This document shows, in pieces, positions 3,855 through 58,277 of a stretch of 64,000 nucleotides of DNA. Every line of letters starts with the position of its first letter. The stretch's first letter is position 1. The notes beneath the pieces are model-generated. The model had not been told where the DNA came from and did not search any database. It worked only from the letters and a program-made list of their open reading frames with translations. A program made the translations under genes and the position numbers. The stretch is taken from the NCBI GenBank assembly GCA_039030655.1, contig JBCCDS010000029.1, forward strand, positions 4,672-68,671, read 5' to 3'. The stretch comes from Bacteroidota bacterium (lineage in GTDB: Bacteria > Bacteroidota > Bacteroidia > Chitinophagales > Saprospiraceae).

Positions 3855-5051
3855 ATGACGCCAGCCGAGTATTGGGTACTGGGTTTAATGTCGGGCAGCT
3901 CCCTAGATGGGCTGGACATGGCGCTTTGTCGTTTTCAGCTAGCGGCGGCTTCCCAGCCTCAGATAGAGGAATGGGAAATTGTAGCGGCAACCACCCGAGA
4001 ATTCCCCAAGCCCTGGCAGGCGCGTCTGCGGATAGCTACCCATTTACCCGCGGCTGAGTTTTGGCGGCTGCACGTTGATTTAGGTCGCTACTTTGGCCAA
4101 CTGGCCAGACAATTCCTCGATCAACAATCGCAAAAGGCGCAGTTGGTCGGCTCTCACGGTCATACCATTTTTCATCGGCCTGATCAGCGGTACACCTGTC
4201 AGATTGGCGACGGAGCAGCCTTAGCTGCCGAACTAGGTCTCCCGGTAGTGGATCAACTGCGATCGAGTGATTTAGCTCAGGGTGGGCAGGGTGCCCCGAT
4301 TGCGCCTTTAGCAGACCGCTACCTTTTCCCCGAATACGGTGCCTTTCTCAATCTGGGGGGGATTGCCAATATCAGTATTCGTACTTCCGCAGGTCCTACC
4401 CCTCCGCTAGAGGCTGAGGACCTGCGGAAGTACAAAAACTCCAACCAATTCTTAGCGGGTGATGTATCTGGCGCCAATCAAATTTTGAATAAGCTAGCCG
4501 TCGCTGCCGGCTCATTACTTCCGTATGATGATGGTGGACGTTTAGCAGCCAGTGGCCATTTGCTGCCTGATTTATTAGAGACCTTAGTCGCCGTAGAATA
4601 TCATCAACAGACCTACCCGAAGTCCTTAGCCAATGCCTGGGTGCAAGAAACGCTCTGGCCAGTTGTCGAGCAAGCCGAAGGTACAGCCGTTGATAAGCTA
4701 CATACCTTTTGCCGTTTTCTGGCCCAACTCATTCATGATGACCTTCGCCGACTGGCCGAGCAAGCCAAGCTGCCCCCACAGCCCATCCAGGTAATGATCA
4801 GTGGAGGTGGCGGTCACAACCGATTTGTAGTGGAATGCCTCCGCAGCCTGGAGCAGGATGATCGCTACCCTTTGGGTTACGCACTTCCCGCCCTAAACAT
4901 CATCAATTTCAAAGAAGCAGCCCTCGTGGCCCTTTCCGCCTTGTGGCGAAAACTAGGCATACCCAATGCTTTTGCCAGCGTGACGGGTGCGAATCAAGAC
5001 ACGATCAACGGGGCATTATATCTACCAGCTCCCAGTTATAAAATCAGCTGA
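3855..5051 (+). CDS. anmK: Anhydro-N-acetylmuramic acid kinase
   Basis: 398 aa with the N-terminal GLMSGSSLDGLD signature, LNLGGIANIS and a C-terminal ISGGGGHN motif of the AnmK/ASKHA family. Carries an extra ~18-aa segment encoded by the hairpin at 4381-4433. Confidence 0.85.
   Translation: MTPAEYWVLGLMSGSSLDGLDMALCRFQLAAASQPQIEEWEIVAATTREFPKPWQARLRIATHLPAAEFWRLHVDLGRYFGQLARQFLDQQSQKAQLVGSHGHTIFHRPDQRYTCQIGDGAALAAELGLPVVDQLRSSDLAQGGQGAPIAPLADRYLFPEYGAFLNLGGIANISIRTSAGPTPPLEAEDLRKYKNSNQFLAGDVSGANQILNKLAVAAGSLLPYDDGGRLAASGHLLPDLLETLVAVEYHQQTYPKSLANAWVQETLWPVVEQAEGTAVDKLHTFCRFLAQLIHDDLRRLAEQAKLPPQPIQVMISGGGGHNRFVVECLRSLEQDDRYPLGYALPALNIINFKEAALVALSALWRKLGIPNAFASVTGANQDTINGALYLPAPSYKIS
4381..4433. 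repeat. 53-nt perfect hairpin element (16-nt arms GTACTTCCGCAGGTCC / GGACCTGCGGAAGTAC, 21-nt loop) embedded in the anmK reading frame
   Basis: The arms at 4381-4396 and 4418-4433 are exact reverse complements. The loop has an inner CCTC/GAGG pair (4401-4404 / 4410-4413). The arms carry the dispersed 12-mer. Confidence 0.85.
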
Positions 5052-6040
5052 TGCAAAACCCTATCCTCTTAACGGGCGCCACCGGCTTTTTAGGCCACCA
5101 CCTTTGCCGAAAGCTGCTGGGAGAAGGGTATCAGGTCCGAGCATTTTGCCGAGCAGAGAGTAATAAGGATTTACTTCCCGCTCCTCAGACTGGCTTTAGC
5201 ATCATTGAAGGTGATATTCTGGATATTTTCACCCTGGCTGACGCTATGGAAGGCTGCGGAGCCGTCATCCACACTGCTGCGCTGGTTTCTTTTCAGAGCA
5301 AGGACAAAAAGCAACTCTATCAAACCAATCAGGAAGGAACGGCTAATGTGGTCAACCTTGCTTTGGACTTAAAAATTCCCCGCCTGGTTTACGTCAGCTC
5401 TGTGGCAGCTCTGGGCAGGAATTCTGGTAGTGAAAAACCAACCAGTCTACGCGACAATTGGCACCATCAGCGAGCCCTTACCCCTTATGCCCGTTCCAAA
5501 TTTGCCGCTGAAAGAGAAGTCTGGCGAGCCCAGGCCGAGGGCTTATCCGTAGGGGCGGTCTATCCCTCAATTATGGTAGGAGCCGGCGACTGGAAACGCG
5601 GAGGCAGCCCAGGTATTTTTGACCATCTAGCTCAAGGTAGTCGCTACTACCCTAACGGCAGTGCCGGCTTTGTAGCGGTAGAAGATGTGGTGCTCAGCTG
5701 TCTTCACCTTTTACAGTCGGAGGAGGCGGCAGAAAGAATCCTTTGTAGTGCTGCCAATCTCAGTTGGGAGAGCTTTCTTACCCAGGCGGCCCGAGCACTC
5801 AAAGTGAAGCCGCCTAGTATCCGATTACGCTCCTGGCAGACGGGACTGCTCTGGCCAATTGTGGGTTTGACCGCTCGGATCAAAGGTAAAAAGCCAATGA
5901 TTACTAGGGCAACCCATCGTACTAGTCAGGCACGGTTCCATTACGATGGCAGTAGCTTTGAAACTATTTTGGGTCGGTCTTATAGCTCCGTTGATGAGGC
6001 TATAAGGCGTACTGCTGCTGCTTATTTGGGTAGCAGTTGA
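5051..6040 (+). CDS. NAD-dependent epimerase/dehydratase family protein (extended SDR)
   Basis: 329 aa with an N-terminal Rossmann motif LTGATGFLGHHL and YARSK (YxxxK). The ATG overlaps the anmK stop by 1 nt (TGATG). Confidence 0.75.
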   Translation: MQNPILLTGATGFLGHHLCRKLLGEGYQVRAFCRAESNKDLLPAPQTGFSIIEGDILDIFTLADAMEGCGAVIHTAALVSFQSKDKKQLYQTNQEGTANVVNLALDLKIPRLVYVSSVAALGRNSGSEKPTSLRDNWHHQRALTPYARSKFAAEREVWRAQAEGLSVGAVYPSIMVGAGDWKRGGSPGIFDHLAQGSRYYPNGSAGFVAVEDVVLSCLHLLQSEEAAERILCSAANLSWESFLTQAARALKVKPPSIRLRSWQTGLLWPIVGLTARIKGKKPMITRATHRTSQARFHYDGSSFETILGRSYSSVDEAIRRTAAAYLGSS

Positions 6041-6271
6041 TGAGGCAGCTTCTGGCTTGGGCAACTAGTAGTAAGCATCAAAACTAGTTTTATCTGTATC
6101 GACAATAGTTGCTACGGCAAACTGTTGGATTGATCCATCGTTCCAGCGATCCAGCAATCATCAATTTTCATCCCAACCATTTTCATGCTACACAACCACC
6201 TCTAACTTCAGCAGCGATTTATAAACCTTCCTGGACCTTCTGCGTTTGGCCTACCGCAAACGAATTACATC

Positions 6272-6964
6272 ATGGCAAACTATCTCATTATTGGAGGTAG
6301 CTCGGGTATTGGCCGAGCACTAGTTGATCAACTATTAGCAGAAGATCATCAGCTTTGGGTCTGGTCTCGCGAGCAGCGTGATTTACCATTGAGTCCACAA
6401 CTGCACTTTACTTCCGTCGATGTTGTGGAGGATGATTTACCCAAAGGCCAGCTACCTGAGCAATTAGATGGCCTCGTATACTGCCCCGGCTCTATTGATC
6501 TGCGATCCTTTCGGGGCTTAAAGCCGGAGGTTTTCCGTACAGCCTATGAATTAAATGTAATCGGTGCAGTACGTTGTATTCAGGCTGCTGAGCGTGCTCT
6601 TAAACAAACTGAGCAGGCAGGCATTGTATTATTTTCAACGGTCGCTGTACAAAAAGGAATGCCCTTTCACGCAGCCGTCGCGGCGGCAAAAGGCGGTGTA
6701 GAAGGCCTTACTCGTTCCTTAGCGGCTGAGTACGCGCCTAAAATTCGGGTTAATGCAATAGCTCCTTCTTTAACGGACACCCCACTAGCCGCCAAGTTGT
6801 TAAGCACCTCAGACAAGCGGCAGGCCAGTGCGGAGCGACACCCGCTTAAACGCGTAGCGGAGCCTACCGAAATAGCGGCTATGGCTGCTTTTCTGCTCAG
6901 TAGCCAGGCCGCATTTATGACGGCCCAGGTAATCGGCATGGATGGTGGAATCGGAAAAATTTAA
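6272..6964 (+). CDS. Short-chain dehydrogenase/reductase family protein (atypical active site)
   Basis: 230 aa with IIGGSSGIG cofactor motif and an RVNAIAPSLTDTPL segment. The position of the catalytic Tyr in YxxxK reads V (HAAVAAAK). Confidence 0.7.
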   Translation: MANYLIIGGSSGIGRALVDQLLAEDHQLWVWSREQRDLPLSPQLHFTSVDVVEDDLPKGQLPEQLDGLVYCPGSIDLRSFRGLKPEVFRTAYELNVIGAVRCIQAAERALKQTEQAGIVLFSTVAVQKGMPFHAAVAAAKGGVEGLTRSLAAEYAPKIRVNAIAPSLTDTPLAAKLLSTSDKRQASAERHPLKRVAEPTEIAAMAAFLLSSQAAFMTAQVIGMDGGIGKI

Positions 6965-6993
6965 AGCGATAGCTCCGGACTAGATATAAAAAA

Positions 6994-8248: not shown

Positions 8249-11200
8249 TTATTCGCGAAGTATGGTCAAAGAACCACGCTTCTGTAGTCGGTCACCTGAA
8301 GGATTAGCATAATCCAGGATGTAGTAGTAAGGCCCTTCCGGTAGCTCAGAGCCATCATTGTTGCGGCCTTCAAAGCAGTTGAGACCTCCGTCCTGGCTAC
8401 AATCGTAGTCGTTGACCTTATACACTAGCTGTCCCCAGCGATTATAGATCTCCAGGACATTATCGTTGAAGTCAGCCCCATCGGTACAGAATAGGATGAA
8501 GGCCTCGTTCAGTCCGTCACCATTAGGAGTAATCACATTGCGTTCCGACAGACAGGGGAAGCGGCGATCGCGTACGGTTACTTCCACAATGATGGTTTGA
8601 CAACGAGCGTCATCCGAGACTTCAATCGTGTATACACCCGGACAGAGTCCTTCGGCTGTAGCTCCCGTCTGGCCCATTAATTGCGGCCATTCGTAGGTGT
8701 AGAGTCCGTTACCGCCGTTTACCGTTACATCAATGGTGCCGTTACAACCGTCATCAGCATCCGTAGAGCTGACCGTGGCCGTCAGGGCTTCCGGCGCATT
8801 AACCGAGAAGGTACCTTGAGCTAAACAGCCATTAGCATCCATTACTTCTACAGAATAGCGATTCGGACGCAGGAATGGAATCGCCGGCGTAATTCGGCCA
8901 TCTTCCCAGAGGTAATCATAATCGCCAGCACCGCCAGTAGCGACTAGCTCGATACGTCCATCGCGGGCGTCTTCACAACTAGCATCGGTGATATTAGCAA
9001 CCAACTCAATCGGGCTTGGTGCGATCACTTCCAGCTGCTCGTCGACGATACAACCATCTTCACTGATAACACGAAGGTCATAGGTTCCTGCCGGAGCGTC
9101 GTTGACGATTGCATCCATACTGACCAATCCGCCATTGCGGCGCCATTCGTAGGTATAGTTTCCTGTACCGCTAACTTCAGCCACCAGTTGTGCATCGCTA
9201 AATCCAGCACAGCTGACGTCAAAGCCATTGTAATCGGTCGTTACATTAGCCGTCACAAAAAAGCCATTAGCTGAGCTTATAGTGTAAGTCCGCACCAGGC
9301 TGGCACCAGTGTTGTCCGTAATGACAACGGTGTAGTCTCCAGCAGCAACCTCAGTAAGGTCTTCCGTTTCGGCAATTACGTCGGTGCTGCCTGCTTCTGT
9401 CCAGGAGAAGGTGTAAGGACCAACACCGCCAGCAACCGTAAGGTCTACGGAGCCCGTGGCATCCCCCGGACAGGCAACCTCAGTGGTCTCTCCCTCTTCG
9501 GTCAGTTCTCCAACGTTGAGGTCACTCACTATTTGTTGACAACCGTTGGCGTCCGTAATGGTAGCGGCATAAGTACCAGCACATAGCTCGCTGACCTGGA
9601 GGCCATCCAAATCAGGCTGGTTCCAGCTAACCGTATACATGGGGCTTCCCCCTTCTACGTTCAGGGTAATACTACCCACGCAGGCAGGATCTTCAGTATC
9701 AGAAACAATGGTTGTTCCGGCCACCACGATGGCATCGGGAGCAGTGATCGTAACATTAGTCGTTGACTGGTTACCCTGACCGTCCGTAACGGTGATTACA
9801 AAATCACCCGCCGGCAAGGCAATGATAAGCGTATCTGAATCACTGCTCCCCATCAGATCTCCTGGTTGAGCAACGGCCGTGTAAGGCCCCGTACCATTTA
9901 TGATGATCAACTCAGCGCTACCCAAGGAATCCGCACAAAGTGATGGAGAAGCCGTCGTACCGTCAATTGACATCGGTTGGGAATCGATGGTGAAGCACTC
10001 TTCCGTGGCACAACTGGACTGATCGTTGATCGTAACGCAGTAAACGCCGGGAGCCAGGCCGTCGACATCTTCCGTCATCGCAAAGATGTCGGTTTCACCG
10101 TCGACCCGCCACTCAAAAGTATAAGGCGCAGCCCCTCCCGTAGGACTCAGGTCAATCGTTCCGTTATCTCCGTTGGTAGAAGAAGAAGTCGACCCATTAG
10201 CTAGGATGGGGGTAGGAGCGAAGAGGGTAAAGTTTGAATTGATCGATTCCGTACCGCAGGTAATTTCTACGGAGTAGGTACCGGGTTCTAAACCATCGAT
10301 ATCTTCCATCATGCCAATCACCATACCTTCTGAGTCGGTCCAGACGAAACTACATTCGCCATTACCTCCAGCTACCGTGATGTCGATTGAACCATTGTTT
10401 GCGCCTACACAACCACTATTGATCGTTTGATCGACCAACACTAATCCTTCTGACACCTGGAAACATTGTGCTCTTTCACACATGCGGCTATCCGTCACAG
10501 TTACACAGTAGGTACCCACCATCGTAAGACCAGCAATATCCTCCGTACCTGCGCTAAAGCCACCAGGGCCTGACCAGTTGTAGGTATACTCTGGAGTGCC
10601 TCCATTAACCAGCAGATCGATAGCTCCATCGGTTCCAGCACTGATATTAGTGATCGAACCACTAGCCACCAGAATTTCTGGTTCTTCTACTTCGATGTCG
10701 ATAAGCTCACGACTACAGCCGTTCCCATCCGTCACGGTAACGGAGTAGAAGCCTGCGGCCAAATTGGTCTGCTGCAGCATTCCATCGGGCAGGTTGCCGC
10801 TCCAGTCGATGATGTAAGGACCATTACCCCCTAGAGTAGCAATCGTAATGCTGCCGTTGGCTTCGCCATTACAGCGCACGTCCTGGACATCTACCGCATT
10901 GACCGAGAAGGGCGGAGGTGCATTTACGGTGTAAGTGGCAGAGGCCGTTTCGTTGGTATTCGGGTTGGTAACTATTACGGTGTAGACCCCAGGCGGTAGG
11001 TCCATGACTACGGGGCCATTGCCCACGTTGGGCGACCATTCGTATTCCAGGTTAGCACCACCGGTAATCGTTAGGCTGATGCTACCGTCCGTATCACCTT
11101 CACAGCTGGTGCCTTGCACATCCGCGTCGACAATCATCGGCGCGTCCGAGCAATTGATACCTCCGTTGATCAGCGTAGCTGGAATCTGCCCGTCAGGGCC

Positions 11201-14200
11201 GAAGAATTCAACGGCAATTTGCTGATTGGTAAAGCTGACCGGCCCACATTCTTCCGACTGAATTTCGAAACAAAGTTCAAAGACCTGCGTCCCGTCCGCC
11301 ACTGTTTTTTCCAGACCATCTGGGGAAGGCCAGGCGACCCTTACATCATCATCTCCTGGATTGGTAATCAGGAAGGGGAATAGCCCAGGAATACAATCAA
11401 ATACCGGTCCGCCATCCAGCGGACAATTGGGTACGTTGGCATTCTGAAAAGTGATTACCGCCGGATCGAAAGTGATACCAAACTGGAAGCTGGATACTGC
11501 TTCAAAATTGAAGACCGTAACCGGCACACAAACGGTTTCTCCCACCATACCTTCGGCGGTACCGATGAGGAAGGTCAAACCACTACCTGGTGGCGGGAAA
11601 CCGCTATTAACGATTCCGCCCATCGCAACTACGCCTACATTTTGACCATTCGCATTTCCAGCAATGATAACCGTAGGTACGGCAGTAGGCGTCACCATGG
11701 TCTGAGCAGCTTCTAGTACTTCGAAGCAAATCGAAACCATCACTGAGCCATCCGCGAGGGTTTCACCTGCGGGAGTACCACTCTCCCACACAAAGGACAA
11801 GGCCCCGGGAGAGGGATTAGTGATATTCGCATTCGACAAGCCCGTCAGGTTGAAGTTGGTCGCGTTGTTGTAGCTCAGCACCGTGCTATTGTAGCTCACG
11901 GAAAATTCGAGCTCGGTGAGTTCATCAAAGTTCTCTACCGTAATGTCCAAACAGACTTCTGAGCCAACACCACCACTACCATCTCCAATATCGAAGATGA
12001 GGTTATCCGGCTGGTCGTTACAAGGAATACCATTATTGACCACTCCACCACTTACGTTGACGGTGACGTCGTCATTAGCGGCATTATTGGCCTCAATCAC
12101 TTGAGGCATATTGGTGATAGTAACCGGGGTAGTACAAGCTTCGATCACCGTATAACAGATGTCCAAAATGGTTTCCCCATTGGGCAAGGTCACACTACCA
12201 CTGGCCGCCGACCAGTTGACGATAATCTGCCCTGGAGTGGCGCCACTAGCAGTCAAGCCCGTTAGCGCACCATTAGGCGTCGCCACAGCAAACTGCAGCT
12301 TGGTTGGATCGTAATTGATGCTGAACTGGAAGTCGGTGATGGTATTAAAGTCAAAAGCATTGATATCGAGGCAAACCTGCTCGCCGACCATGCCCGTACC
12401 GTTACTAACCGTTAAGGTAATCTCATTGGGTGGACAAGCAGGACAGTCAGGACCACCACAGTCGATACCCGTCTCTTGGCCATTCATAATACCGTCTTCA
12501 CAGTCACCGGGGCATTCTGGGCAATCGGGACCGCCACAGTCCACACCCGTCTCCTGACCGTTTTGGATACCATCCTCACAGGTCGGCGGGCAAGCGGGGC
12601 AATCGGGACCGCCACAGTCGACGCCCGTCTCCTGGCCATTCTGGATGCCGTCGTCACAAGTCGGGCCACCACCGCAGCCGGCATTTACCGTGCCTGGGAA
12701 GACATCGATGGCCAGACTCTGCCCCAGGTTATTGGAGCCGGTAATGGAAATCGGGTCACCCGTTATTTCTACGGTAGTCGTACAATCATCCTCGATCGTG
12801 AAGCAGAAAGAAGCAATTACGGTTCCATCTGGAAAAGTAAGCCCCATAAACTCCGGGCTCTGATCTACCCAGACCACCCGCAGTGCATCACTGGGTGAAT
12901 TGGTCACCTGCATCGGGCTGAAGGCTGCCAGGAAGTCAGGATTTGCCGTAAAGCTGTTGTAGTTCAGGAAGGCTTCATCGAAATTGATGCTGAACTGGAA
13001 GGCCGTAACGTCGGTAAAGTTGGTCGTAACGACGTCTAGGCAAATTTCCGTGCCTACTCCACCTTCGCCGTTGAGGACGCGGAAGGTCAGGTTGTCCGAA
13101 CAGGGCGCACAGTTAGGACCACCACAGTCGATCTGCGTTTCGCCATTATTTAGGATACCATCATCACAAGTCTCGGTGGGCGGACAAGCAGCACAATCAG
13201 GGCCACCGCAGTCAACCCCCGTTTCTTGACCATTCTGAATACCATCCTCGCAGGTCGGAGGATTGATGCAAGGATCACAATCAGGACCGCCACAATCGAC
13301 ACCAGTTTCGTTGCCATTCTGGACACCATCATTACAAGTCGGACAGGGTGCACAATTGGGACCGCCACAATCGACATCCGTCTCGCCGTTGTTCTGGATG
13401 CCGTCATTACAGCTTTCAGTCGTACCGCCATTGACGATACCGCCACTGACGAATACATCCTGGCTCTGGCCCAGGTTATTGGAGGCTGTAATCGAAATGG
13501 GCGTACCCGTGATGTCCACCGGCGTTTGGTCGTCATCAAGCACCGTAAAGCAAAGCGTTGCAATCACCGTTCCGTCGGGGAAGCTGAGACCCATGAATTC
13601 CGGGCTCTGGTCTACCCAGACGATACGTAGAGCGTTGCTTGGCGAGTTGGTCACCTGCATCGGGCTGAAGGCCGCCAGGAAATCGGGATTGGCCGTGAAG
13701 TTATCGTAAGAAAGGAAGGCCTCGTCAAAGTTAACACTGAACTGGAAGGCCGTAATGTCGGTAAAGTTGGCCGTAGTAATATCCAGACATACCTGGCTAC
13801 CGACGCCACCGTTACCATCTTGTAGATCGAAAGTCAATAAGCTGTTACAGGGGGCACAGTTGGGGCCACCACAGTCGACTTCAATCTCACCGTTGTTCAG
13901 GATACCATCATCGCAGGTTTCCATGACGTTACAGGGCATACAATCAGGGCCACCACAGTCTATACCGGTTTCGTTACCGTTCTGGATGCCATCAGTACAG
14001 TTCGGTGGGTCGATACAAGGATCACAATTAGGACCGCCACAGTCCACGCCCGTTTCACCATTATTCTGGATACCGTCGTTACAGGTCTCGGTAGTCGAAC
14101 CGTTGACGATACCGCCATCGACAAATACATCCTGGCTCTGGCCCAGATTATTAGAGGCTGTGATAGAAATCGGCGAGCCCGTAATATCGACCGTTGTTTG

Positions 14201-17092
14201 ACCATCATCCACTACCGTAAAGCAGATGGTGGCAATCACCGTTCCGTCTGCAAAACTCAGGCCCAGGAATTCCGGGCTCTGGTCTACCCAGACCACCCGT
14301 AGTGCATCACTAGGCGAGTTAGTCACCTGCAGTGGGCTGAAAGCCGCTAGAAAATCAGGATTAGCCGTGAAGTTGTCGTAAGTCAGGAAGGACTCATCGA
14401 AATTGACACTGAACTGGAAAGCCGTAATGTCGGTAAAGTTGGCCGTGGTAATATCCAGACAGACTTGAGCGCCAATGCCCCCAGCGCCATTTTGAACATC
14501 AAAGGTCAGATCATCGCTCATGACCATACAAGGATCACAGCTACCGCCACAGTCTACGCCGGTTTCATCGCCGTTTTGAATTCCATCATTACAAGTCGTA
14601 CAAGGTGCACAACTACCGCCACAATCGACACCAGTTTCGTCACCGTTCTGGATGCCGTCGTTACAGGTCGGGGTCATCCCATCTCCATTAACGATGCCTC
14701 CTTGGGTGCTTACCGCCAGCGCCATACCGCTATTATCGGAAGCCGTGATGGAGATCGGTGAGCCGCTTATATCTACGAAAGTCTGACCATCGTCAACAAC
14801 CGTAAAGCAAATCGTAGCGATCACCGTTCCGTTAGGGAAGCTCAGGCCTTGGAATTCCGGGCTCTGATCCACCCAGACAACTCGTAAAGCATTGCTCGGT
14901 GAATTAGTCACCTGCAGTGGGCTGAAGTTGGCGATAAAATCGGGGTTGGCCGTAAAGTTGTCGTAAGTCAGGAAGGACTCGTCAAAATTGACACTGAATT
15001 GGAAGGCGGTTACATCCGTGAAGTTAGTCGTCGTGATGTCGAGACAAACCTGCGTACCTACATCGCCATCACCAGGCTGAATCGTGAAGCTCAAATCATC
15101 ACCTCCAGCACAAGGAGAGCAATTAGGGCCACCACAGTCAACGCCCGTCTCGCCATTGTTCTGGATGCCATCATTACAGCTTTCGCAAGGCGCACAAGAG
15201 CCACCGCAGTCAACACCAGTCTCTGTTCCGTTCTGGATACCGTCGTTACAAGTAGGCGTCGTTCCACCATTGACGGAACCACCCTGCGTATCCACCGGTA
15301 AGGCCTGTCCCATATTGTTGGCTGCCGTAATGACGATTGGGCTATTGGTAATGTCTACCGTAGTCGGGCCATCATCTACAATCGTGAAACATAGCGTAGC
15401 CAGGACCGTACCATCAGGGAAGGTAAGTCCCAGGAATTCCGGAGACTGATCCGTCCACACAATCCGCAGTACACCATCCGCTGAGTTAGTTACTTGCAGT
15501 GGACTAAAATTATTGGCGAAAGCCGGATTGGCCGTAAAGTTGGTATAGGCCAGGAAGTCGGTATCAAAATTGACACTAAACTGCCAGGCAGCAATATTGG
15601 TATAATTACTAGTGGTCAGGTCTAGGCAGATCTGCTGTCCGGCGTTGCCTGATCCATCAGCGATGGTAAAGCTCAGATTGTCGCTACCATTATCGCAGGG
15701 TGCACAACTGCCACCACAATCTACTCCCGTCTCCGTTCCATTCTGGATGCCGTCGTTACAGCTTGGTCCGCCGCCATTACCGGCATTGATCGTGCCATCG
15801 TCGGTGATTACGTTGAAGGGTACACCGTTGTTATTAAAGGCCTCGATTGGAATGGGCGTATTCGAAAAGACGACGTCCGTCTCACTATCGTCGAGGATGC
15901 GGAAACAAACCGAAAGCAAGATGGACCCATCGGGCAGGCTTGCACCCAGGTTATCCGCATTCTGGTAGAAATAGCTCACCCGAACTTGACCAGGCGTTCC
16001 ACTAGGTTGACTGGCCTGAATAGTAGGAAAAGCCAGGTTGTCGAAATTTTGGAATTGTAGGCGACTAGCGTCGTAGTTGATACTGAACTGCATCGCAGCC
16101 ACTGCTTCAAAAGCATTGACGGTGAGGTCCAGACAGACCGTAGTGCCGATGGCACCGTTACCATCTGACAAATCAAAGATGAAATCGTCACTGCCTCCTG
16201 CTGGTGGTGATGCCGTACCCGATAGCACGTCGGTTCCAATCATAGCCCCCGCGTCGGTGGTCGCGGAGCCGGCCGCGCCTTCGCTGATCACCTTCGTTCC
16301 TGGATCAGAATAGTTAGCGGGAATAGCATGACAGAGGCTAAAGGCCGTCAAGCCATCAGCTAGCGTTACCCCAGGCGTACTTCCGTGGGTATAACTGATC
16401 AAGGCAGTATTGTTCCCACTCACCGTCAGGTTGCCGGTCAGACTGGGGTGCACATTACTAATCGTAGGGGTGGCCACTGCTCCCAGTGGGTTACTCACCG
16501 TAAACTGGAAACTGGTGATCGCAGAGAACTCGGCGACCGTTACATCCTGACAAATAGTTTGCCCGGGCATAATTTGACCATTGCCGAAGTCGAAGACGAG
16601 ATCATTAGGTACCGCACCATTACCTTCATTGACCAGGCCATTGTTGTAGGTCACCCCGGCAATCGGCCCCGATTGGCCACTCACTTCTGCGGTAATCGGC
16701 GTGCTGGAGAAGACCACATTCGTCTCTTCATCAGACAGCACGTTGAAGCAAACAGTACCAATCAGAAAGGGGTCGGCGCTGGTAAAGCCTTCCAAGCCGA
16801 AAACGGACCATTGCACCCGGATATCTCCAGGGGCCGGATTGCTGATATTAACGGGAGCTCCAATCAGGATTTCTCCGGTTCGAGAGCCGTACTCCAGCAC
16901 ACTGGCGTCGTAATTGACGCTGAACTGAAATCCAAAGATGTTGTCGAAGTTGTCGCCGGTTATATCGAGACAGAGCTCCGTTCCAGTAGCGGCATCTTCA
17001 CTTTCGATCGTGAGAATTGGCACCTGAGAGAATAGTTGCGTAAAGCTGAACAAGCATAGGATGCCCGCCAGTAAACTGTAGCGTCCTTCCAT
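8249..17092 (-). CDS. Giant SprB-like cell-surface protein: 11 cohesin-like modules, 15 four-Cys motifs, about 11 SprB repeats and a T9SS type-B C-terminal sorting domain
   Basis: Uninterrupted 2947-aa ORF with a signal peptide ending LFSFTQLFSQ. The recurring FQFS[VI]N[YF]D motif marks the cohesin-like modules. Other repeats are the motif CxDGxxNxxETGxDCGGxxCxxC (x15) and SprB-type repeats (C.G..NGSI.L...GG..PY.Y.W) over roughly nt 8590-11110. The C-terminus ITPNGDGLNEAF...YNRWGQLVY...GPYYYIL matches the gliding-motility/type-B CTD. Confidence 0.9.
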   Translation of the reverse strand: MEGRYSLLAGILCLFSFTQLFSQVPILTIESEDAATGTELCLDITGDNFDNIFGFQFSVNYDASVLEYGSRTGEILIGAPVNISNPAPGDIRVQWSVFGLEGFTSADPFLIGTVCFNVLSDEETNVVFSSTPITAEVSGQSGPIAGVTYNNGLVNEGNGAVPNDLVFDFGNGQIMPGQTICQDVTVAEFSAITSFQFTVSNPLGAVATPTISNVHPSLTGNLTVSGNNTALISYTHGSTPGVTLADGLTAFSLCHAIPANYSDPGTKVISEGAAGSATTDAGAMIGTDVLSGTASPPAGGSDDFIFDLSDGNGAIGTTVCLDLTVNAFEAVAAMQFSINYDASRLQFQNFDNLAFPTIQASQPSGTPGQVRVSYFYQNADNLGASLPDGSILLSVCFRILDDSETDVVFSNTPIPIEAFNNNGVPFNVITDDGTINAGNGGGPSCNDGIQNGTETGVDCGGSCAPCDNGSDNLSFTIADGSGNAGQQICLDLTTSNYTNIAAWQFSVNFDTDFLAYTNFTANPAFANNFSPLQVTNSADGVLRIVWTDQSPEFLGLTFPDGTVLATLCFTIVDDGPTTVDITNSPIVITAANNMGQALPVDTQGGSVNGGTTPTCNDGIQNGTETGVDCGGSCAPCESCNDGIQNNGETGVDCGGPNCSPCAGGDDLSFTIQPGDGDVGTQVCLDITTTNFTDVTAFQFSVNFDESFLTYDNFTANPDFIANFSPLQVTNSPSNALRVVWVDQSPEFQGLSFPNGTVIATICFTVVDDGQTFVDISGSPISITASDNSGMALAVSTQGGIVNGDGMTPTCNDGIQNGDETGVDCGGSCAPCTTCNDGIQNGDETGVDCGGSCDPCMVMSDDLTFDVQNGAGGIGAQVCLDITTANFTDITAFQFSVNFDESFLTYDNFTANPDFLAAFSPLQVTNSPSDALRVVWVDQSPEFLGLSFADGTVIATICFTVVDDGQTTVDITGSPISITASNNLGQSQDVFVDGGIVNGSTTETCNDGIQNNGETGVDCGGPNCDPCIDPPNCTDGIQNGNETGIDCGGPDCMPCNVMETCDDGILNNGEIEVDCGGPNCAPCNSLLTFDLQDGNGGVGSQVCLDITTANFTDITAFQFSVNFDEAFLSYDNFTANPDFLAAFSPMQVTNSPSNALRIVWVDQSPEFMGLSFPDGTVIATLCFTVLDDDQTPVDITGTPISITASNNLGQSQDVFVSGGIVNGGTTESCNDGIQNNGETDVDCGGPNCAPCPTCNDGVQNGNETGVDCGGPDCDPCINPPTCEDGIQNGQETGVDCGGPDCAACPPTETCDDGILNNGETQIDCGGPNCAPCSDNLTFRVLNGEGGVGTEICLDVVTTNFTDVTAFQFSINFDEAFLNYNSFTANPDFLAAFSPMQVTNSPSDALRVVWVDQSPEFMGLTFPDGTVIASFCFTIEDDCTTTVEITGDPISITGSNNLGQSLAIDVFPGTVNAGCGGGPTCDDGIQNGQETGVDCGGPDCPACPPTCEDGIQNGQETGVDCGGPDCPECPGDCEDGIMNGQETGIDCGGPDCPACPPNEITLTVSNGTGMVGEQVCLDINAFDFNTITDFQFSINYDPTKLQFAVATPNGALTGLTASGATPGQIIVNWSAASGSVTLPNGETILDICYTVIEACTTPVTITNMPQVIEANNAANDDVTVNVSGGVVNNGIPCNDQPDNLIFDIGDGSGGVGSEVCLDITVENFDELTELEFSVSYNSTVLSYNNATNFNLTGLSNANITNPSPGALSFVWESGTPAGETLADGSVMVSICFEVLEAAQTMVTPTAVPTVIIAGNANGQNVGVVAMGGIVNSGFPPPGSGLTFLIGTAEGMVGETVCVPVTVFNFEAVSSFQFGITFDPAVITFQNANVPNCPLDGGPVFDCIPGLFPFLITNPGDDDVRVAWPSPDGLEKTVADGTQVFELCFEIQSEECGPVSFTNQQIAVEFFGPDGQIPATLINGGINCSDAPMIVDADVQGTSCEGDTDGSISLTITGGANLEYEWSPNVGNGPVVMDLPPGVYTVIVTNPNTNETASATYTVNAPPPFSVNAVDVQDVRCNGEANGSITIATLGGNGPYIIDWSGNLPDGMLQQTNLAAGFYSVTVTDGNGCSRELIDIEVEEPEILVASGSITNISAGTDGAIDLLVNGGTPEYTYNWSGPGGFSAGTEDIAGLTMVGTYCVTVTDSRMCERAQCFQVSEGLVLVDQTINSGCVGANNGSIDITVAGGNGECSFVWTDSEGMVIGMMEDIDGLEPGTYSVEITCGTESINSNFTLFAPTPILANGSTSSSTNGDNGTIDLSPTGGAAPYTFEWRVDGETDIFAMTEDVDGLAPGVYCVTINDQSSCATEECFTIDSQPMSIDGTTASPSLCADSLGSAELIIINGTGPYTAVAQPGDLMGSSDSDTLIIALPAGDFVITVTDGQGNQSTTNVTITAPDAIVVAGTTIVSDTEDPACVGSITLNVEGGSPMYTVSWNQPDLDGLQVSELCAGTYAATITDANGCQQIVSDLNVGELTEEGETTEVACPGDATGSVDLTVAGGVGPYTFSWTEAGSTDVIAETEDLTEVAAGDYTVVITDNTGASLVRTYTISSANGFFVTANVTTDYNGFDVSCAGFSDAQLVAEVSGTGNYTYEWRRNGGLVSMDAIVNDAPAGTYDLRVISEDGCIVDEQLEVIAPSPIELVANITDASCEDARDGRIELVATGGAGDYDYLWEDGRITPAIPFLRPNRYSVEVMDANGCLAQGTFSVNAPEALTATVSSTDADDGCNGTIDVTVNGGNGLYTYEWPQLMGQTGATAEGLCPGVYTIEVSDDARCQTIIVEVTVRDRRFPCLSERNVITPNGDGLNEAFILFCTDGADFNDNVLEIYNRWGQLVYKVNDYDCSQDGGLNCFEGRNNDGSELPEGPYYYILDYANPSGDRLQKRGSLTILRE
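12434..15760 (-). repeat. In-frame tandem module array inside the giant gene (cohesin-like module plus 1-4 Cys motifs per unit)
   Basis: The landmark CTGAA[CT]TGGAA (complement of the FQFS codons) recurs at 12321, 12990, 13737, 14409 and 14994, with variants at 15576 and 16083. Spacings are 669, 747, 672, 585, 582 and 507 nt. The first and last Cys motifs lie at 15695-15760 and 12434-12503. Confidence 0.85.
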
Positions 17093-17177: not shown

Positions 17178-17948
17178 CTAGCCGCCGGTAAAGACGACTT
17201 TTTGACTCAGTTGTAGCTCGTCGCCGGTCACCTCAATTAAGTAGGTGCCCGCGGCGGGCATATCGCTAGCTTCCAAAGATACTTGGTTCACACCAGCATC
17301 CAATTCCAGCGATCGTTGTTGCACCAAACGCCCTTGCAGATCATAGATACGCAACTGGGCCGTTTGTTCTTTTATCATTTCAATACGCAGCTGGGTCGCC
17401 ACGGAGAAGGGGTTGGGAAGGGCGGTCATTTGTACTTCCGCAGGTGTTCCCGTCAGGTCTGGCATTACGCGGATAGTGGCACCAGTAAACTGGGCAGGCA
17501 TTTCCTGACCTACACCGTTGCCCACTAAACAGCGGGTGGGTTGCTCGCTGAAATTGAGATGAACTTCCTCTCCTACCCGAGCCAATACTTTAAAGCGTAG
17601 ACTATAGAGTATAGTCCCGTCTTCCAGGTCATAGCCTTGCAGGGCCGGATCCATAAAAGTATAAGCCAACCGCCCTGCATCGGTCTGACGCAGATTGAAA
17701 TTAGCCGTAGCGGTAGCACCTAATGCTAAGTTCTTTACTTCCTGAAAACTTAATTGCTCTGGATCCCAATTGAGGGAAAGTTGAGCAGCTGCGACTGCAC
17801 GAAAGTCTTCTACAGACAAGTCCAGCTCCACGAACTGATCGGGAGCGGCTTCTACATCAGGAATGAAGAAGGTAGTAAGCTGTGCCTGGAGCTGGCTAGC
17901 CAATAGCAGCGGCAGGACTCCAAGGAAGCGGAGTAGCATTCTGCTCAT
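17178..17948 (-). CDS. Small secreted single-cohesin-domain protein with T9SS type-A C-terminal sorting domain
   Basis: Signal peptide MSRMLLRFLGVLPLLLASQLQAQ (ATG at 17948; the ORF track starts at a GTG at 17954). Cohesin-like signature VAAAQLSLNWDPEQLSF. C-terminal LPNPFSVATQLRIEM...IYDLQGRLV matches the Por secretion tail. Confidence 0.8.
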   Translation of the reverse strand: MSRMLLRFLGVLPLLLASQLQAQLTTFFIPDVEAAPDQFVELDLSVEDFRAVAAAQLSLNWDPEQLSFQEVKNLALGATATANFNLRQTDAGRLAYTFMDPALQGYDLEDGTILYSLRFKVLARVGEEVHLNFSEQPTRCLVGNGVGQEMPAQFTGATIRVMPDLTGTPAEVQMTALPNPFSVATQLRIEMIKEQTAQLRIYDLQGRLVQQRSLELDAGVNQVSLEASDMPAAGTYLIEVTGDELQLSQKVVFTGG

Positions 17949-23128: not shown

Positions 23129-23672
23129 ATGAGATTACGATGTACGTGAGATAAATTGCAAAAATTCATTTTTCGTGCTGAACTGATTTTTTGCGTTGGT
23201 GAATTCAGCCAGCACTTTACGACGAAACCGCTACTGCTAGGCAGTATACCCGGTGAAAAGACAGACGAAGGGGAGGGAAACAAGGGCAGCTCAATTCACC
23301 ATAGTCTTTGCCGACGTAGGCAAATGCGTGGTGTAAATGAGTGCTTGGGTATGTTTTAAGTCGCCTATCAAAACCAGGTATAGCTACTTTCACAAGTTGC
23401 TATTCTAGGCAAATATAAGCGGTAGCAGTTGAATTCCCGGACTTTTAACATACAATTCTGATGCTTGCCACTACAGTTTACCTCTAGCCACTAATAAAAT
23501 GGCCGATGCTGTGCAGGGCGTTTACACCTGCGGAAGTACCTATACAAATAGATATAAGTAAATCACCATCTGGAGTTTGGCGACCCAAGAATAGCTCATT
23601 TCAGTTAGACAATAGTTCTCAAAAATCAGCCGTGGATGCTTAACTAATTACCTCCTTTTTTGTTAATTAAGC

Positions 23673-24120: not shown

Positions 24121-24639
24121 TTGGACACAAAAACCATCTACCTCGGTGCTGGCTGCTACTGGAGCAAGGAGTATCACTTAAGCCGTCTGGTGGGTGTGCT
24201 GGGCACCGAGGTAGGTTTTGCCGGCGGGCAGCTCGAAAACCCCAGCTATCTGGAAGTCTGTGGCAAAAAGACTGGACATGCAGAAGTGGTTGCCGTGCGC
24301 TATCAGCCTAAGCTGTTGAGTTTTTACTGCCTTTTACAGCACTTCTTCCAGCTACATCCCGCTCAGGTCGATCGACGGAAAAATGGTGGCCAGTACCGGT
24401 CGGCTATCTTCTTCCCCAACATAGCTAACAAATTGGAAATCAGTACCATAAATTGGATGTTCGGTTTTTTGACTTCCGCAGGTCTATCCCCTACTACCGA
24501 AGTGAAAGAATCCGTTTCGTTTTTTCGGGCTATGGATCGGCATCAAGGCTACTGCGAGCGCCTAAGCAGGCCACCGAAAAACGGGCTTGGTTTTCCGCTC
24601 TACTCCTGGCCAGCAGCGCCCAGCGGCCTTATTTTATAA
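24121..24639 (+). CDS. msrA: Peptide-methionine (S)-S-oxide reductase
   Basis: 172 aa with active-site GAGCYW, then GHAEVV and GGQYRSAIFF motifs. Only a TTG start (24121) is available upstream of the catalytic Cys, because there is an in-frame stop at 24106. Confidence 0.8.
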   Translation: MDTKTIYLGAGCYWSKEYHLSRLVGVLGTEVGFAGGQLENPSYLEVCGKKTGHAEVVAVRYQPKLLSFYCLLQHFFQLHPAQVDRRKNGGQYRSAIFFPNIANKLEISTINWMFGFLTSAGLSPTTEVKESVSFFRAMDRHQGYCERLSRPPKNGLGFPLYSWPAAPSGLIL

Positions 24640-36103: not shown

Positions 36104-36106
36104 GGC

Positions 36107-36559: not shown

Positions 36560-36593
36560 GGATATTAGGGGTTAGTGTAGGGTGGAAGGCTAC

Positions 36594-37073: not shown

Positions 37074-37100
37074 ATTGATCTAATTTAAAAGGTAGTGGAA

Positions 37101-40406: not shown

Positions 40407-40753
40407 GCTAGGTTTTATTTGGGCCTACGAAGGTAACTTGCTACTTTTTAAGCGCCGTTGCTTTTTATAGTTCATTAACAAGCTTTTTCACTTCCGCAGG
40501 TGTAAGCGTCAAGCGTGTTTATTGATTTCCAATCGTTAAGAGGTTTGCTAAAAAATTAGAACCTAGTAATAACTGAGGACCTCGAAGAGTCCGAACGCAG
40601 GAGGATCTTTGAGCGTTCAGATAGTCCTCGGAATTGAGCGTCTAGCTATATCCATAGAGCACCATAGCTTTTGAAACTAGTAAGTCGGCTCAACTGTCGC
40701 ACCCAACCATTTCCAAATATGTCTCATCTTAGTGGTACAACTACTACCGATTT

Positions 40754-47694: not shown

Positions 47695-47911
47695 AAGGCT
47701 GCGCAGCAGCGCTCGACCATTACCCACTATTTTTTTAGAACGCGGATCTTTTCTTTTAGGAAGGTAAATGCCTGGGGCAGTGTAGAGGCAATAATGCGCC
47801 AGTGCGCTCAGCCAGTCGTGAGTAGCAGCATGGGAGCGGATGACCACTCACCTGCGGTTCGTTGCACGGATTTCGGTTGCTGCTAGGAGCTTGGTCTACA
47901 GTTTATTCAGT
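47695..47911. repeat. Intergenic repeat, copy 1 (~217 bp)
   Basis: Aligns along its whole length with 48088-48300 (same orientation, estimated by eye at 75-80 percent identity). Begins AAGGCTGCGCAGCAGCGCTCG and ends CAGTTTAT[TC]CAGT. Confidence 0.8.
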
Positions 47912-48344: not shown

Positions 48345-49085
48345 TTATAGGCGAGCTTTCATGCTTTCGTAGAGCATGATCCCGGCGGCTACCGAAACAT
48401 TAAAGCTGTTCATGGTGCCGACCTGCGGAAGTCTAAAACGCCAATTTGCAGCCCGCGCAACCCCAGTACTGATACCTTCTCCTTCCGCGCCTAGCACCAA
48501 ACAGAGCGGAGCCTGTAGATCTAGTTCGGCCAGGTCCTGTTCCGCCTGGAGATCGCTGGCAGCTACTTGGAGACCACATTCTTGTAAGTACTCGATGGTA
48601 TTGATGAGGCTCTTTTCCCGGCAGACGGGTAAGCGAGCCAGAGCGCCAGCCGAGCTTTTCACCGCATCGGGCGTCAAACCAGCGCTATTCTTTTGGCCAA
48701 TAATGATAGCTTGGGCACCACATATTTCCGCCGAGCGGGCAATGGCGCCCAGGTTGCGCACATCCGTCACCCCGTCTAATAACAACAATAAGGGGGTTTG
48801 GCCCTGCTCATAGATAAAGGGCAGGATATCTGTAATCTTCTGGTAGGGAGCCGCCGCCATTTGAGCGGCTACCCCCTGATGGTTGCCTTTAACCATCCGC
48901 TGGAGTTTCTCCTTAGGCACCATAGTCAGTGGGACTTCACGATCACGACATAGGTGGCGCAACTCTTTTTCGAGCTCTCCGCGGGTGCCTTGCAGAAGAT
49001 AGACCTTATCAACCGGTTGCCCGGACTGTAAGGCTTCAATAACCGGATGACGGCCGTAGATTAATTGCTGGCGACTGGACTTCAT
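48345..49085 (-). CDS. rlmB: 23S rRNA (guanosine-2'-O)-methyltransferase RlmB (SpoU/TrmH family)
   Basis: LIYGRHPVIEAL N-terminal L30e-like domain and SPOUT motifs (LLLLDGVTDVRNLGAIARSAE, LVLGAEGEGIS, NSFNVSVAAGIMLYE). The start is placed at the ATG at 49085, which overlaps the upstream stop as ATGA. The ORF track allows 49112. Confidence 0.85.
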   Translation of the reverse strand: MKSSRQQLIYGRHPVIEALQSGQPVDKVYLLQGTRGELEKELRHLCRDREVPLTMVPKEKLQRMVKGNHQGVAAQMAAAPYQKITDILPFIYEQGQTPLLLLLDGVTDVRNLGAIARSAEICGAQAIIIGQKNSAGLTPDAVKSSAGALARLPVCREKSLINTIEYLQECGLQVAASDLQAEQDLAELDLQAPLCLVLGAEGEGISTGVARAANWRFRLPQVGTMNSFNVSVAAGIMLYESMKARL

Positions 49086-53859: not shown

Positions 53860-53960
53860 GCGTACTTTTTAAATCAAGATCATCCCGCTAGGGGTACTAA
53901 AAGACTCATAAGCGACCGATAGTACCAAGAATAACTAAAACAGTCTAGCGTCTTTTGTTT

Positions 53961-54146
53961 GTACTTCCGCCCGGTACGGGCCCGTCTGGGCAGGTGTATT
54001 GGGGAACCGAGACCATCCTAGCAGCGCCAGGTATTGCGAGAAACGAGAGTCGAGATGGATGAAATGCACAGGTCTCGACTCTCGACTCTAGGAACCCTGA
54101 TTTAGTCGGGATGGTCTTGATTCTGCTTTTACACCTGCGGAAGTAC
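53961..54146. repeat. 186-bp MITE-like structured element bounded by inverted copies of the 18-mer GTACTTCCGCAGGTGTAA
   Basis: The right end TTACACCTGCGGAAGTAC (54129-54146) is intact. The left end is GTACTTCCGC (53961-53970) plus AGGTGTA (53992-53998), split by a 21-nt insert. Nested perfect stems are GAGAGTCGAGA / TCTCGACTCTC (54045-54055 / 54073-54083) and AGACCATCC / GGATGGTCT (54010-54018 / 54109-54117). Confidence 0.6.
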
Positions 54147-54757
54147 CAATTACAAACCCTAAAAACACCAATAAGTTCCCGCCGGAACAGAATCAATCCC
54201 TAAACCTATTTACCGCTCCTGACCATATTGCCTCCGCACCCTAAAAGGGTTTTTATTTTCCGGGCAGGACTAGACCATTACGCGACTTAGTCCGTTTACT
54301 TTGCAACTCCTCATAAGGAGAGAAGCACCTGAGACGAATTTTCGAGGTTGAATGAACGTAGTAGCTCAGTAGAACTTTTTGATACTTTAATAGAAGTAGT
54401 AATAGTCCTGGAGCGAATTTCCCCAGCATTTTCCACGCCCCCAGTTTAGTGGGCATTCCCATGAAAGTAATGAGTGTTTGACCCTCCCCTTGCGATCCCC
54501 TCGCAAGTGGAACAATAGTGCCTATGAGCAGTCAGTAGCTCGCCTATTCAAGCTAGGCGTCACTTGACCTCAGCAGCAGTATTGGGGCTAGCTCTATGCA
54601 CATTTCCTAAGGCTTTATCAAGGGTAGCTACACCCTTTGACTGGCACTGTAATAGCGCAGTGACTTACTGATATCCTATTGCCAATCACCAAGCAACCAA
54701 CCGAGCGACTGCACATGGTCGCGAGATAATAAACCAACTCAAAGACACGTAATTCAA

Positions 54758-57265: not shown

Positions 57266-57281
57266 TATCACCTGAAGCCAC

Positions 57282-58277
57282 CTAAGACAAAGACGACCAA
57301 ACAGCCTGTATCTCAGCCACAATGGTCACGTGATTCAGGTCGCGCATACAGCGAAAATGTCCCTTGGGACAGCTGGCGTGGCCGATCTTAGAGCAAGGCC
57401 GGCAGGAGAGCCCTTCGATCTCCTGCCGCCTTGCTCTTTCTGTTGCTTCCTGGCCGGGCAGATAGGGGTACATCCCAAAGTCCGGCACGGTGTTGCCCCA
57501 GACGGAAATGATCGGCTTATGAAAAGCCGCGGCGATGTGCATCAGTCCGGTATCGTGGGTAAGCACTACCCTAGCCTGCTGCACCAAGGAAGCCGATTGG
57601 CCCAACTTGAAGCTGCCGCAGCTATTATAAACCTGAGGGCCCGCTGCAGTTGCCAGCCGTTCACCAATTTCTTTTTCTCCGGGTCCTCCCAATAAAACAA
57701 GGGGGTAGGGGCAAGCCTGACAGATGGCGAGTAGCTGATCTTCGGGCAAGCGTTTAGTCGCATGAGCGGCACCGATTACCATGGCGACATATTCCTGTGG
57801 CAAGCCAAATTTGCCCAGCGCAACTACATCTTCCGGTCCCAAAAAATAATCCAGCCCTCCACCGTCATTTTGGATGCCCAATGGCTTCGCTGCCGCCAGA
57901 TAACGATCGACAATATGTACTGCTGGCAAGCGATTCAACTTGAAGTTGGTCAGCAACCACTTCTGCCAGTTAAGCTTATTGAAGCGGTAGGTTTTGCACT
58001 TCCGCAGGTGTAAGTCCAGCTGCCGAGTTCGCAGATTATTGTGCAGATCAATGAGCGTATCGAATCCTTCAGCTTTTAGCTCATCGGTAATCTCCGTCAC
58101 TTCTTTTTCGATGGTCCACAACTTAGTCAGATAGGGATTGTGTTTCAAGACCCCTGCGTAGGCGCGTTTGGTGAGAAAGTGCACCTCCGCTCCCAGCTGC
58201 TGCTGTACGGCTCTGATCACCGGTGTGGTCAGTACAACATCCCCAATGGAGGAAAAGCGGACGATGAGGACTTTCAT
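57282..58277 (-). CDS. Glycosyltransferase family 9 (heptosyltransferase-like)
   Basis: 331 aa with MKVLIVRFSSIGDVVLTTPVIRAV at the N-terminus and GGPGEKE...THDTGLMHIAAAF blocks typical of GT9. Confidence 0.8.
   Translation of the reverse strand: MKVLIVRFSSIGDVVLTTPVIRAVQQQLGAEVHFLTKRAYAGVLKHNPYLTKLWTIEKEVTEITDELKAEGFDTLIDLHNNLRTRQLDLHLRKCKTYRFNKLNWQKWLLTNFKLNRLPAVHIVDRYLAAAKPLGIQNDGGGLDYFLGPEDVVALGKFGLPQEYVAMVIGAAHATKRLPEDQLLAICQACPYPLVLLGGPGEKEIGERLATAAGPQVYNSCGSFKLGQSASLVQQARVVLTHDTGLMHIAAAFHKPIISVWGNTVPDFGMYPYLPGQEATERARRQEIEGLSCRPCSKIGHASCPKGHFRCMRDLNHVTIVAEIQAVWSSLS

Follow-up and report, generated by a model that had tools for sequence, protein, structure and literature searches.

The closest described counterparts of the word reported here, a 12-mer dispersed through a 64-kb stretch of Bacteroidota DNA, are the DNA uptake sequences (DUS) of the Neisseriaceae, a 12-mer (AT-DUS) with its dialects, and the uptake signal sequences (USS) of the Pasteurellaceae, a 9-mer core with an AT-rich flank. 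To our knowledge, functional evidence for 'self' DNA tagged by sequence comes from just two proteobacterial families, the relatives of Neisseria and of Haemophilus, and we know of no explanation, after 30 years, for the cyanobacterial word HIP1. Uptake sequences lie in open reading frames (ORFs) in proportions of 65%, 49% and 34.5% in three USS/DUS genomes, and Findlay and Redfield described their frame bias, their location at poorly conserved residues and the doubling of the tripeptides they encode (PMC2817400). The DUS dialects are clade-specific variants (PMC3630211). Natural transformation occurs in Bacteroidota, and the proteins used for it are widespread in the phylum (PMC8459023); our literature searches found no uptake-type or HIP-type word described from Bacteroidota, and a search for the present word itself returned only unrelated primer and shRNA sequences. 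The 64-kb stretch, called the window throughout, belongs to a Lewinellaceae-like member of the Saprospiria, whose nearest named homologues are those of Lewinella, Neolewinella and Lewinellaceae. Its word, ACCTGCGGAAGT, is best read as a recognition sequence that is specific to the lineage, resembles USS/DUS (or HIP1) in kind and is maintained by drive or selection.

The word in the window

The exact 12-mer ACCTGCGGAAGT or its complement is present in 11 copies in the window, with 0.00 expected from 100 dinucleotide shuffles and none found in thirty third-order Markov simulations, which bears out the excess over chance claimed in a preliminary description of this DNA. The copies are split 5 (+) to 6 (-), again as described, with no strand bias. 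The family is sharply exact: no more than four copies have one mismatch (0.57 expected; at 1679, 11765, 42346 and 59154), and the number with two mismatches does not depart from chance (5 against 6.1 expected). Six of the 11 copies reach the 14-mer ACACCTGCGGAAGT, two are the full 18-mer TTACACCTGCGGAAGTAC (23522-23539 and 54129-54146), and a twelfth copy is split by a 21-nt insert, the 18-mers and the split copy lying at the places first assigned to them. An alignment of the 11 copies revealed conserved flanks, so that the conserved unit exceeds 12 nt: position -2 is A in 8/11 and position -1 is C or G in 11/11, followed on the other side by C at +2 (8/11) and A at +3 (8/11), +4 (9/11) and +5 (11/11). 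The conserved form is (TT)A-S-ACCTGCGGAAGT-N-C-A-A-A, with approximately 17 informative bases, asymmetric and with an A-tract on one side; the 22-mer form of the word is TTACACCTGCGGAAGTACAAAA. Sharing between non-orthologous copies ends at approximately 16-32 nt in all-against-all BLAST of the ±150-nt flanks. Read directly from the sequence, ACCTGCGGAAGT is free of stop codons in all six frames, and the 16-mer TACACCTGCGGAAGTA has partial dyad symmetry (5/8 Watson-Crick pairs; chance P ~0.03).

Eight of the 11 exact copies are carried in ORFs of unrelated genes, in four frames and orientations (4 sense, 4 antisense), and encode the peptides that were read from them before: TSAG and DLRK (each twice), HLRK, LPQV (twice) and PAEV. 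A single conserved peptide is not their source, since there are four frames and intergenic copies; a protein-motif explanation was rejected on these grounds and on that of conserved synonymous sites. The non-coding 9.8% of the window holds 3/11 exact copies, or 4/12 with the split copy (P ~0.07-0.08), in agreement with the earlier count of three to four in about 10%. Copies follow one another every 4-8 kb, and their gaps, with a coefficient of variation of 0.52, are less variable than at random (P = 0.04); adding the one-mismatch copies gives 0.46 (P = 0.003). Given 10-14 points, the even spacing is only suggestive. GC skew has no clear switch in the window. ACCTGC outside the word was counted 41 times, with 41.0 expected, so there is no restriction-type signal, and the type IIS site in the core had rightly been discounted. 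HIP1 itself was considered as the identity of the word and rejected (GCGATCGC, 2 copies in the window against 1.1 expected).

The remaining repeated k-mers of the window all lie inside one internally repetitive giant gene (8249-17092; 2947 aa), which leaves ACCTGCGGAAGT as the window's only dispersed word. The internal DNA repeats of this gene include GACGGCATCCAGAA and ACCGCCACAGTC, each in four copies; GACGGCATCCAGAA-type k-mers were considered as related words and rejected as unrelated internal repeats. The gene is without an exact word, its sole near-copy being the one-mismatch form at 11765.

Conservation and origin of the copies

Relatives were reached through protein homologues, with approximately 20 kb of DNA per genome. 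Three lineages besides the window carry the word: L133 and L136 (ENA ERZ27279858; HisD 82% and HflX 95% against the window; 7 exact copies in 39 kb), which are syntenic with window 20-41 kb and 42-60 kb; L137, L115 and L138 (metagenome-assembled genome (MAG) GCA_039025055.1 at NCBI / Logan SRR22824307; HflX 86%, AnmK 58%; 5 exact copies in ~30 kb); and L139 (NCBI MAG GCA_039817625.1; HflX 85%; 4 exact copies in 21 kb). With the window they hold 27 exact copies in ~154 kb, or 1 per 5.7 kb. The closest relative (sample ERR4592245) is 93% identical.

Seven of the eight window copies in regions shared with L133/L136 are exact at the orthologous place, and the eighth, in hisD, is one base off; the alignment of orthologues that had been proposed thus found positions shared in the nearest relatives, with the copy at 54133 absent from L137 and L139. 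Inside the word, third-codon positions are identical in 20/20 cases over the five coding copies comparable with L133/L136, against a third-position identity of 0.39-0.53 in the rest of those genes, also where the amino acid is unchanged, and a general background of about 0.45-0.5; the corresponding P is of the order of 1e-6. In the gene for a family-9 glycosyltransferase (GT9), the copy (57998-58009, -; read sense as HLRK) is CACCTGCGGAAGT in all four lineages, in a gene whose third-codon positions are only 42-52% identical. The left copy in anmK (4383-4394, -; read antisense as TSAG, in a loop variable among homologues) has the same 12-mer at the orthologous codons of L115, with AnmK 58% identical and third positions 38%. 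Exact orthologous copies were also found for msrA (24472-24483, -; antisense TSAG) at L133 4575, for hisA (34796-34807, +; sense DLRK) at L133 14856, within a 32-nt fully identical run, and for the SpoU methylase gene rlmB (48421-48432, +; antisense LPQV) in L136. The three intergenic copies are retained exactly in surroundings that are ~41-43% identical, with indels of 12-57 nt directly beside them. The first, a full 18-mer 147 nt upstream of msrB (23526-23537, +), corresponds to a copy at L133 3634 and has indels directly on both sides; the second, 84 nt upstream of a DUF5916 gene (40490-40501, -), is exact at L133 20604 with a 35-nt indel alongside; the third, also a full 18-mer (54133-54144, +), is exact at L136 6371. 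A further solo copy, in a gene for a cohesin protein with a tail of the type IX secretion system (T9SS), is read sense as PAEV and lies at 17434-17445 (-); its earlier placement at 17444-17455 was wrong, all other coordinates of the exact copies being correct. With orthologous 12-mers kept where synonymous sites are near saturation, and with intergenic copies kept as well, the conservation is at the DNA level and not at the protein level, as had been proposed. Exact copies, once made, are kept very long at the DNA level in genes and spacers alike, and the word is very probably a real DNA-level word, functional or driven, common to a clade.

The solo copies are not insertions. The hisD copy (30416-30427, -; antisense LPQV) aligns without gaps to an orthologue of solved structure (GLPQV against GIKNI), the region of the hisA copy is an unremarkable conserved one that, against its solved-structure orthologue, shows only a single-residue gap, and the GT9 and rlmB copies involve no length change in four-way codon alignments; insertion of a mobile element therefore cannot explain the bulk of the family. 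Intermediate steps are visible. At the HisD site the family consensus is C-G-V-T-K-(V/I)-F, L133 has C-G-L-T-Q-V-Y and the window C-G-L-P-Q-V-Y (exact); the L133 gene holds the one-mismatch form ACCTGCGTAAGT (LTQV), in the longer stretch ACTTACGCAGGT, and among 120 homologues only the window and the 93%-identical P0122 have Pro there. RlmB reads RLAQV in L137 and RLTQV in L139, one mismatch each, and RLPQV in the window and L136 (exact). In the M14 peptidase, DRNRS/DQNRA of L137/L139 has become DSRRS in the window and L136, an 11/12 match. Point substitution thus creates copies where they stand, in spacers and in whichever reading frame tolerates them, and against protein preference. Over ~11 kb in common with L137/L139, three copies in the window lineage stand against one in theirs, so that accumulation continues in the window lineage. 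No exact copy specific to L133/L136 was found in 39 kb. Three or four orthologous copies differ in concert at position -1, which is C in the window and G in L133/L136; in hisD the difference is synonymous, in a Val codon. These sites, only 3-4 in number, hint that the preferred extended word has shifted between lineages.

Four one-mismatch near-copies are present, all on the (+) strand: AGCTGCGGAAGT in a TPR gene (1679-1690; an Ala-to-Pro change would make it exact), ACCTGCGGGAGT in the giant repeat-protein gene (11765-11776), ACCGGCGGAAGT in mutL (42346-42357; TGGS; Cys would be needed; same variant in L136) and ACCTGCGGGAGT in the M14 peptidase gene (59154-59165; DSRRS; Phe would be needed; same variant in L136, absent from L137 and L139). 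Those unchanged in the window and L136 are exactly the ones in two otherwise unused frames (mutL Cys, M14 Phe): the approach to the word halts at one mismatch where completing it would cost Cys or Phe. Of the truncated or one-mismatch relatives proposed earlier, three correspond to the near-copies at 1679, 11765 and 42346; the sequence at 47849-47857 is only an 8-mer, and that at 729-744, inside the TPR gene, is a separate perfect 16-nt palindrome, GTACTTCGGGAAGTAC, which resembles a back-to-back junction of the family's two outer ends and could be chance or a collapsed pair.

The distribution of the word appears to have a sharp edge. At ~20 kb per genome it is present in the four related lineages, and no exact copy was found in other Lewinellaceae at similar protein distance (SD302 L127, L128/129, L130-132 and L135). 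A scan of genome contigs with ACACCTGCGGAAGT gave only single, taxonomically scattered chance matches among the matches listed, and a metagenome scan with the 18-mer gave 11 matches, single in every case and at chance level. In a scan of viral contigs, ACCTGCGGAAGTNCAAA was matched 31 times, each time as the only copy on its contig, so no phage link was found. Lewinellaceae bacterium SD302 (L127, PDLQ01000011.1) has a dispersed word of its own, CAAAGTAGCAATG, with 4 exact copies in 16.8 kb (2915, 9396, 9525 and 13830; extended form TGGCTAGCAAAGTAGCAATGCC). Two of the four fall within ORFs, and two make up an inverted pair, spaced ~130 nt apart and located upstream of cytochrome c and anmK genes. 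The complement of the SD302 word, TTGCTACTTTGCTAG, is loosely like TTGTACTTCCGCAGG and, on this resemblance, may be a 'dialect'. Other repeats were seen in passing in these genomes: a Chi-like 10-mer, ACTGGTGGGG, at L128 3328, 8217, 11666 and 19592 (3/4 copies on one strand, ~20 kb); the 10-mer CGAAAAAGGC at L130 6872, 7984, 13441 and 16027 (4/4 copies on one strand, ~20 kb); and an 8-nt tandem repeat of the CTACCCAA type, with ~10 units, at L136 130-210, the start of the contig.

Inverted pairs and the surrounding window

Three inverted pairs of the word were found, all oriented alike: the complement copy precedes the other, and the GTAC/AAA ends point away from the centre. The first is a 67-nt near-palindrome in anmK (4374-4440), whose arms of 31 nt are 84% complementary around a 5-nt loop; the predicted DNA fold of the 90-nt segment 4361-4450 is -23.3 kcal/mol. 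Its left arm holds the copy at 4383 and its right arm the copy at 4420-4431 (+; read sense as DLRK), which lies within an insertion of ~14 aa that the window shares with the 93%-identical P0001 and that the remaining homologues lack; the anmK gene of L115 has the left copy only. The second is a nested hairpin of ~190 nt (53946-54161) between hflX and an M12 protease gene, bounded by the split copy on the left arm and the copy at 54133 on the right; the 225-nt segment 53941-54165 has a predicted DNA fold of -50.4 kcal/mol. The split copy (53961-53998, -) reads TAC-ACCTGC-(21 nt)-GGAAGT-ACAAAC, with the flanks of the family on both halves, and is not recognisable in L136, which at this spacer has the right copy only, with a different hairpin adjoining. 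The 21-nt insert, with the perfect palindrome ACGGGCCCGT at 53972-53990, may carry a 2-nt (GC) border duplication. In L136, the complement of ~6420-6480 has a perfect long hairpin, AGACTCAAGAATCAAGAC...GTCTTGATTCTTGAGTCT, at the place of the hairpin element of the window. The third pair is in L139 (18536, one mismatch, and 18639), where it bounds a segment of ~115 nt that is an in-frame insertion of ~34 residues relative to L137.

Each pair coincides with sequence absent from a sister lineage, and two of them are in-frame insertions in ORFs. The interiors of the pairs (21, ~90 and ~165 nt) are unrelated to each other and match nothing elsewhere among the sequences compared, and the pairs are therefore not copies of one MITE (miniature inverted-repeat transposable element); a MITE family with a shared core was also rejected by the all-against-all BLAST of flanks. 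The pairs resemble hairpins or inverted duplications that started from a copy; alternatively, they may be the product of an enzyme acting at the word.

The window is otherwise ordinary chromosome, with the his operon, mutL, efp, accBC, hflX, msrAB, anmK, T9SS cargo proteins and PorP/SprF. Among 40 window ORFs scanned against Pfam there was no transposase, methyltransferase, competence gene or REP-associated tyrosine transposase (RAYT/Y1; REP, repetitive extragenic palindromic sequence). An Rfam search of the window matched only a tRNA-Phe gene, so the hairpin element is not a known RNA. Next to that element, ~550 nt of non-coding DNA (54200-54750) upstream of the M12/T9SS protease gene are conserved with L136 far better than the adjacent spacer; they are likewise without an Rfam match and may represent an extended 5' leader or an RNA that lacks annotation. 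Between hisF and hisIE, four tandem small ORFs of 146-159 aa (35663-37559, -) have no Pfam match at E<=1e-5; the array is kept in L133, where one of the four orthologues has a weak DUF5362 match.

Candidate processes and known systems

The process behind the word would be biased DNA uptake and transformation, to which a probability of roughly 0.38 is assigned from the combined analysis. The word, presumably spread at ~1 per 5.7 kb over the whole chromosome of one Lewinellaceae subclade, would be recognised by a putative sequence-specific DNA-binding protein, and its balance of mutation, selection and drive would be the signature of DNA uptake signal sequences. An outer-surface DNA receptor of the competent cell would prefer fragments that bear the word; alleles with the better match would be taken up and recombined into neighbours more often, the word would accumulate, and the accumulated word would serve as a tag for 'own-kind' DNA. 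The inverted pairs would be a by-product, in which a copy has given rise to a hairpin or inverted duplication whose GTAC ends point outward. The uptake-signal tag is ranked first because a similar balance has been described for uptake sequences and because the clade variants are like DUS dialects. The fuller proposal is a doubtful one, namely that this is the first uptake-signal system outside the Proteobacteria: a transformable Saprospiria/Lewinellaceae subclade would have a receptor reading (TT)AS-ACCTGCGGAAGT-NCAAA, presumably within the pilus-independent outer-membrane uptake route described for Riemerella, and the words of sister lineages (e.g. CAAAGTAGCAATG in SD302) would make the tags interspecies barriers to recombination.

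Several observations weigh against biased uptake. The density of 1 per 5.7 kb is ~5x below that in Neisseria/Haemophilus (of the order of 1 per kb), and with ~215 kb of DNA in all from four lineages the genome-wide statistics are extrapolated. The Pfam scan found no competence gene, pilin or candidate receptor in the window ORFs. The inverted pairs lie in ORFs (two, with insertions) or in a divergent promoter spacer and, unlike those of Neisseria and Haemophilus, are not gene-end terminators, and ORF-internal pairs with insertions are not predicted by an uptake model. Positional conservation, finally, is equally expected from site-by-site purifying selection for a chromosomal function.

The last point leads to the main rival, a HIP1-like chromosomal site, which is unlikely, if less so than the other alternatives. 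The word would be bound by an abundant cytoplasmic protein (nucleoid-associated, condensin-loading, repair or replication-linked) and held by purifying selection for even coverage, with no role in uptake. Positional conservation in genes and spacers is the very argument used for selection on HIP1 (PMC5861425); a spacing more even than random, at one copy every 4-8 kb, and a low turnover, with no L133/L136-specific exact copy in 39 kb, would also be accommodated, and the partial dyad of TACACCTGCGGAAGTA (5/8 pairs) would suit a dimeric binder. Such a site explains poorly, however, the costly changes from Thr/Ala to Pro in hisD and rlmB, where synonymous or intergenic alternatives are near, and leaves the concerted change at position -1 between lineages unexplained. 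HIP1, moreover, is an 8-bp palindrome tied to methyltransferases, whereas the present word is a non-palindrome of 12-17 nt whose partner protein is only putative.

Less probable again is a site for a transposase, nickase or recombinase of the REP/REPIN-RAYT (REPIN, REP doublet forming a hairpin) or miniature terminal-inverted-repeat kind, in which the pairs would be mobile or made by the enzyme and the solos either targets or halves left by decay. It is the pairs that speak for it: all three share the -/+ polarity (P ~0.016 if four arrangements are equally likely), every one forms a long hairpin and corresponds to DNA that a sister lineage lacks, and two are in-frame ORF insertions, as are Rickettsia palindromic elements. 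Indels adjoin the intergenic copies, one copy is split by a 21-nt insert, and the word is lineage-specific like REPs, the SD302 word also having an inverted pair ~130 nt apart. Most copies, however, are non-insertion solos made by stepwise substitution, and 73% lie within genes, unlike REPs, which are extragenic. By itself the unit does not form a hairpin, and it lacks the tag (GTAG/CGTC) that marks RAYT-associated REPs (PMC3733652). What copies have in common is limited to ~16-32 nt, the interiors of the pairs are unrelated, no target-site duplication was seen and no transposase/Y1 gene is among the window ORFs.

A functionless, neutral by-product of sequence-specific repair or mutation bias, such as conversion toward the word resembling very-short-patch repair, is very improbable. 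The substitutions are directional toward the word, amino-acid-changing steps included, and the ratio of exact to one-mismatch copies is sharp, as this would predict; against it, no repair system is known to read 12-17 contiguous asymmetric bases, the long orthologous retention, spacers included, favours constraint over constant re-creation, and neither the A-tract in the flank nor the even spacing is expected. A polar chromosomal signal (Chi, or the FtsK-orienting polar sequences, KOPS) or a restriction-modification target is the least likely reading: the word is an over-represented oligomer whose core holds ACCTGC (BspMI class), but it has no strand bias over 64 kb (5:6) or relative to transcription (4 sense, 4 antisense), its 12-17 nt far exceed known Chi or KOPS sites, and ACCTGC outside it matches expectation.

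Whichever process applies, a long unambiguous word with an apparently sharp phylogenetic boundary, visible intermediates and a different word in a sister makes a clean comparative system, which could separate uptake bias, selection for chromosome function and an enzyme as the creator of such words. The word is of practical use as a marker of native versus foreign DNA in these genomes, and the motif-bounded in-frame hairpin insertions are a further way in which such words remodel proteins. If the uptake-signal reading is true, the word would be a handle for the genetic manipulation of an otherwise intractable group.

Among the analogies first offered, those with USS/DUS and HIP1 fit best, and the termini of REP, Rickettsia palindromic element or MITE families fit only the three inverted pairs. 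REP/REPIN-RAYT systems and Rickettsia palindromic elements are matched by inverted doublets with long hairpins that are lineage-specific and by in-frame insertions in ORFs (anmK and the L139 ORF). A REP unit, however, is an imperfect palindrome of 20-40 nt, extragenic and with a GTAG/CGTC tag, whereas the unit here ends in GTAC and 8/11 copies are in ORFs; and the word differs from MITEs and Rickettsia palindromic elements in that its solos are not insertions and its copies have no shared internal sequence. With HIP1, which occurs in all frames, the word shares hyper-abundance in genes and spacers, use of several frames and non-random spacing, and the conservation of orthologous positions beyond codon constraint reported for HIP1 is found here too (PMC5861425). 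HIP1 differs in being an 8-bp perfect palindrome that overlaps methyltransferase sites and is 5-20x denser, whereas the present word has 12-17 nt, is non-palindromic and is without a restriction-modification-type signal. The likeness to DUS/USS extends to a short, exact, asymmetric word that is hyper-abundant on both strands, to coding copies in several frames, made by point substitution at poorly conserved residues, and to stable orthologous positions, apparently clade-specific variants, inverted pairs and an A/T-rich flank, the CAAA tract being like that of USS. The differences are that the host belongs to Bacteroidota, a phylum without a known uptake sequence, that the inverted pairs are not gene-end terminators and two of them are in-frame insertions, and that the word is known here from sequence alone.

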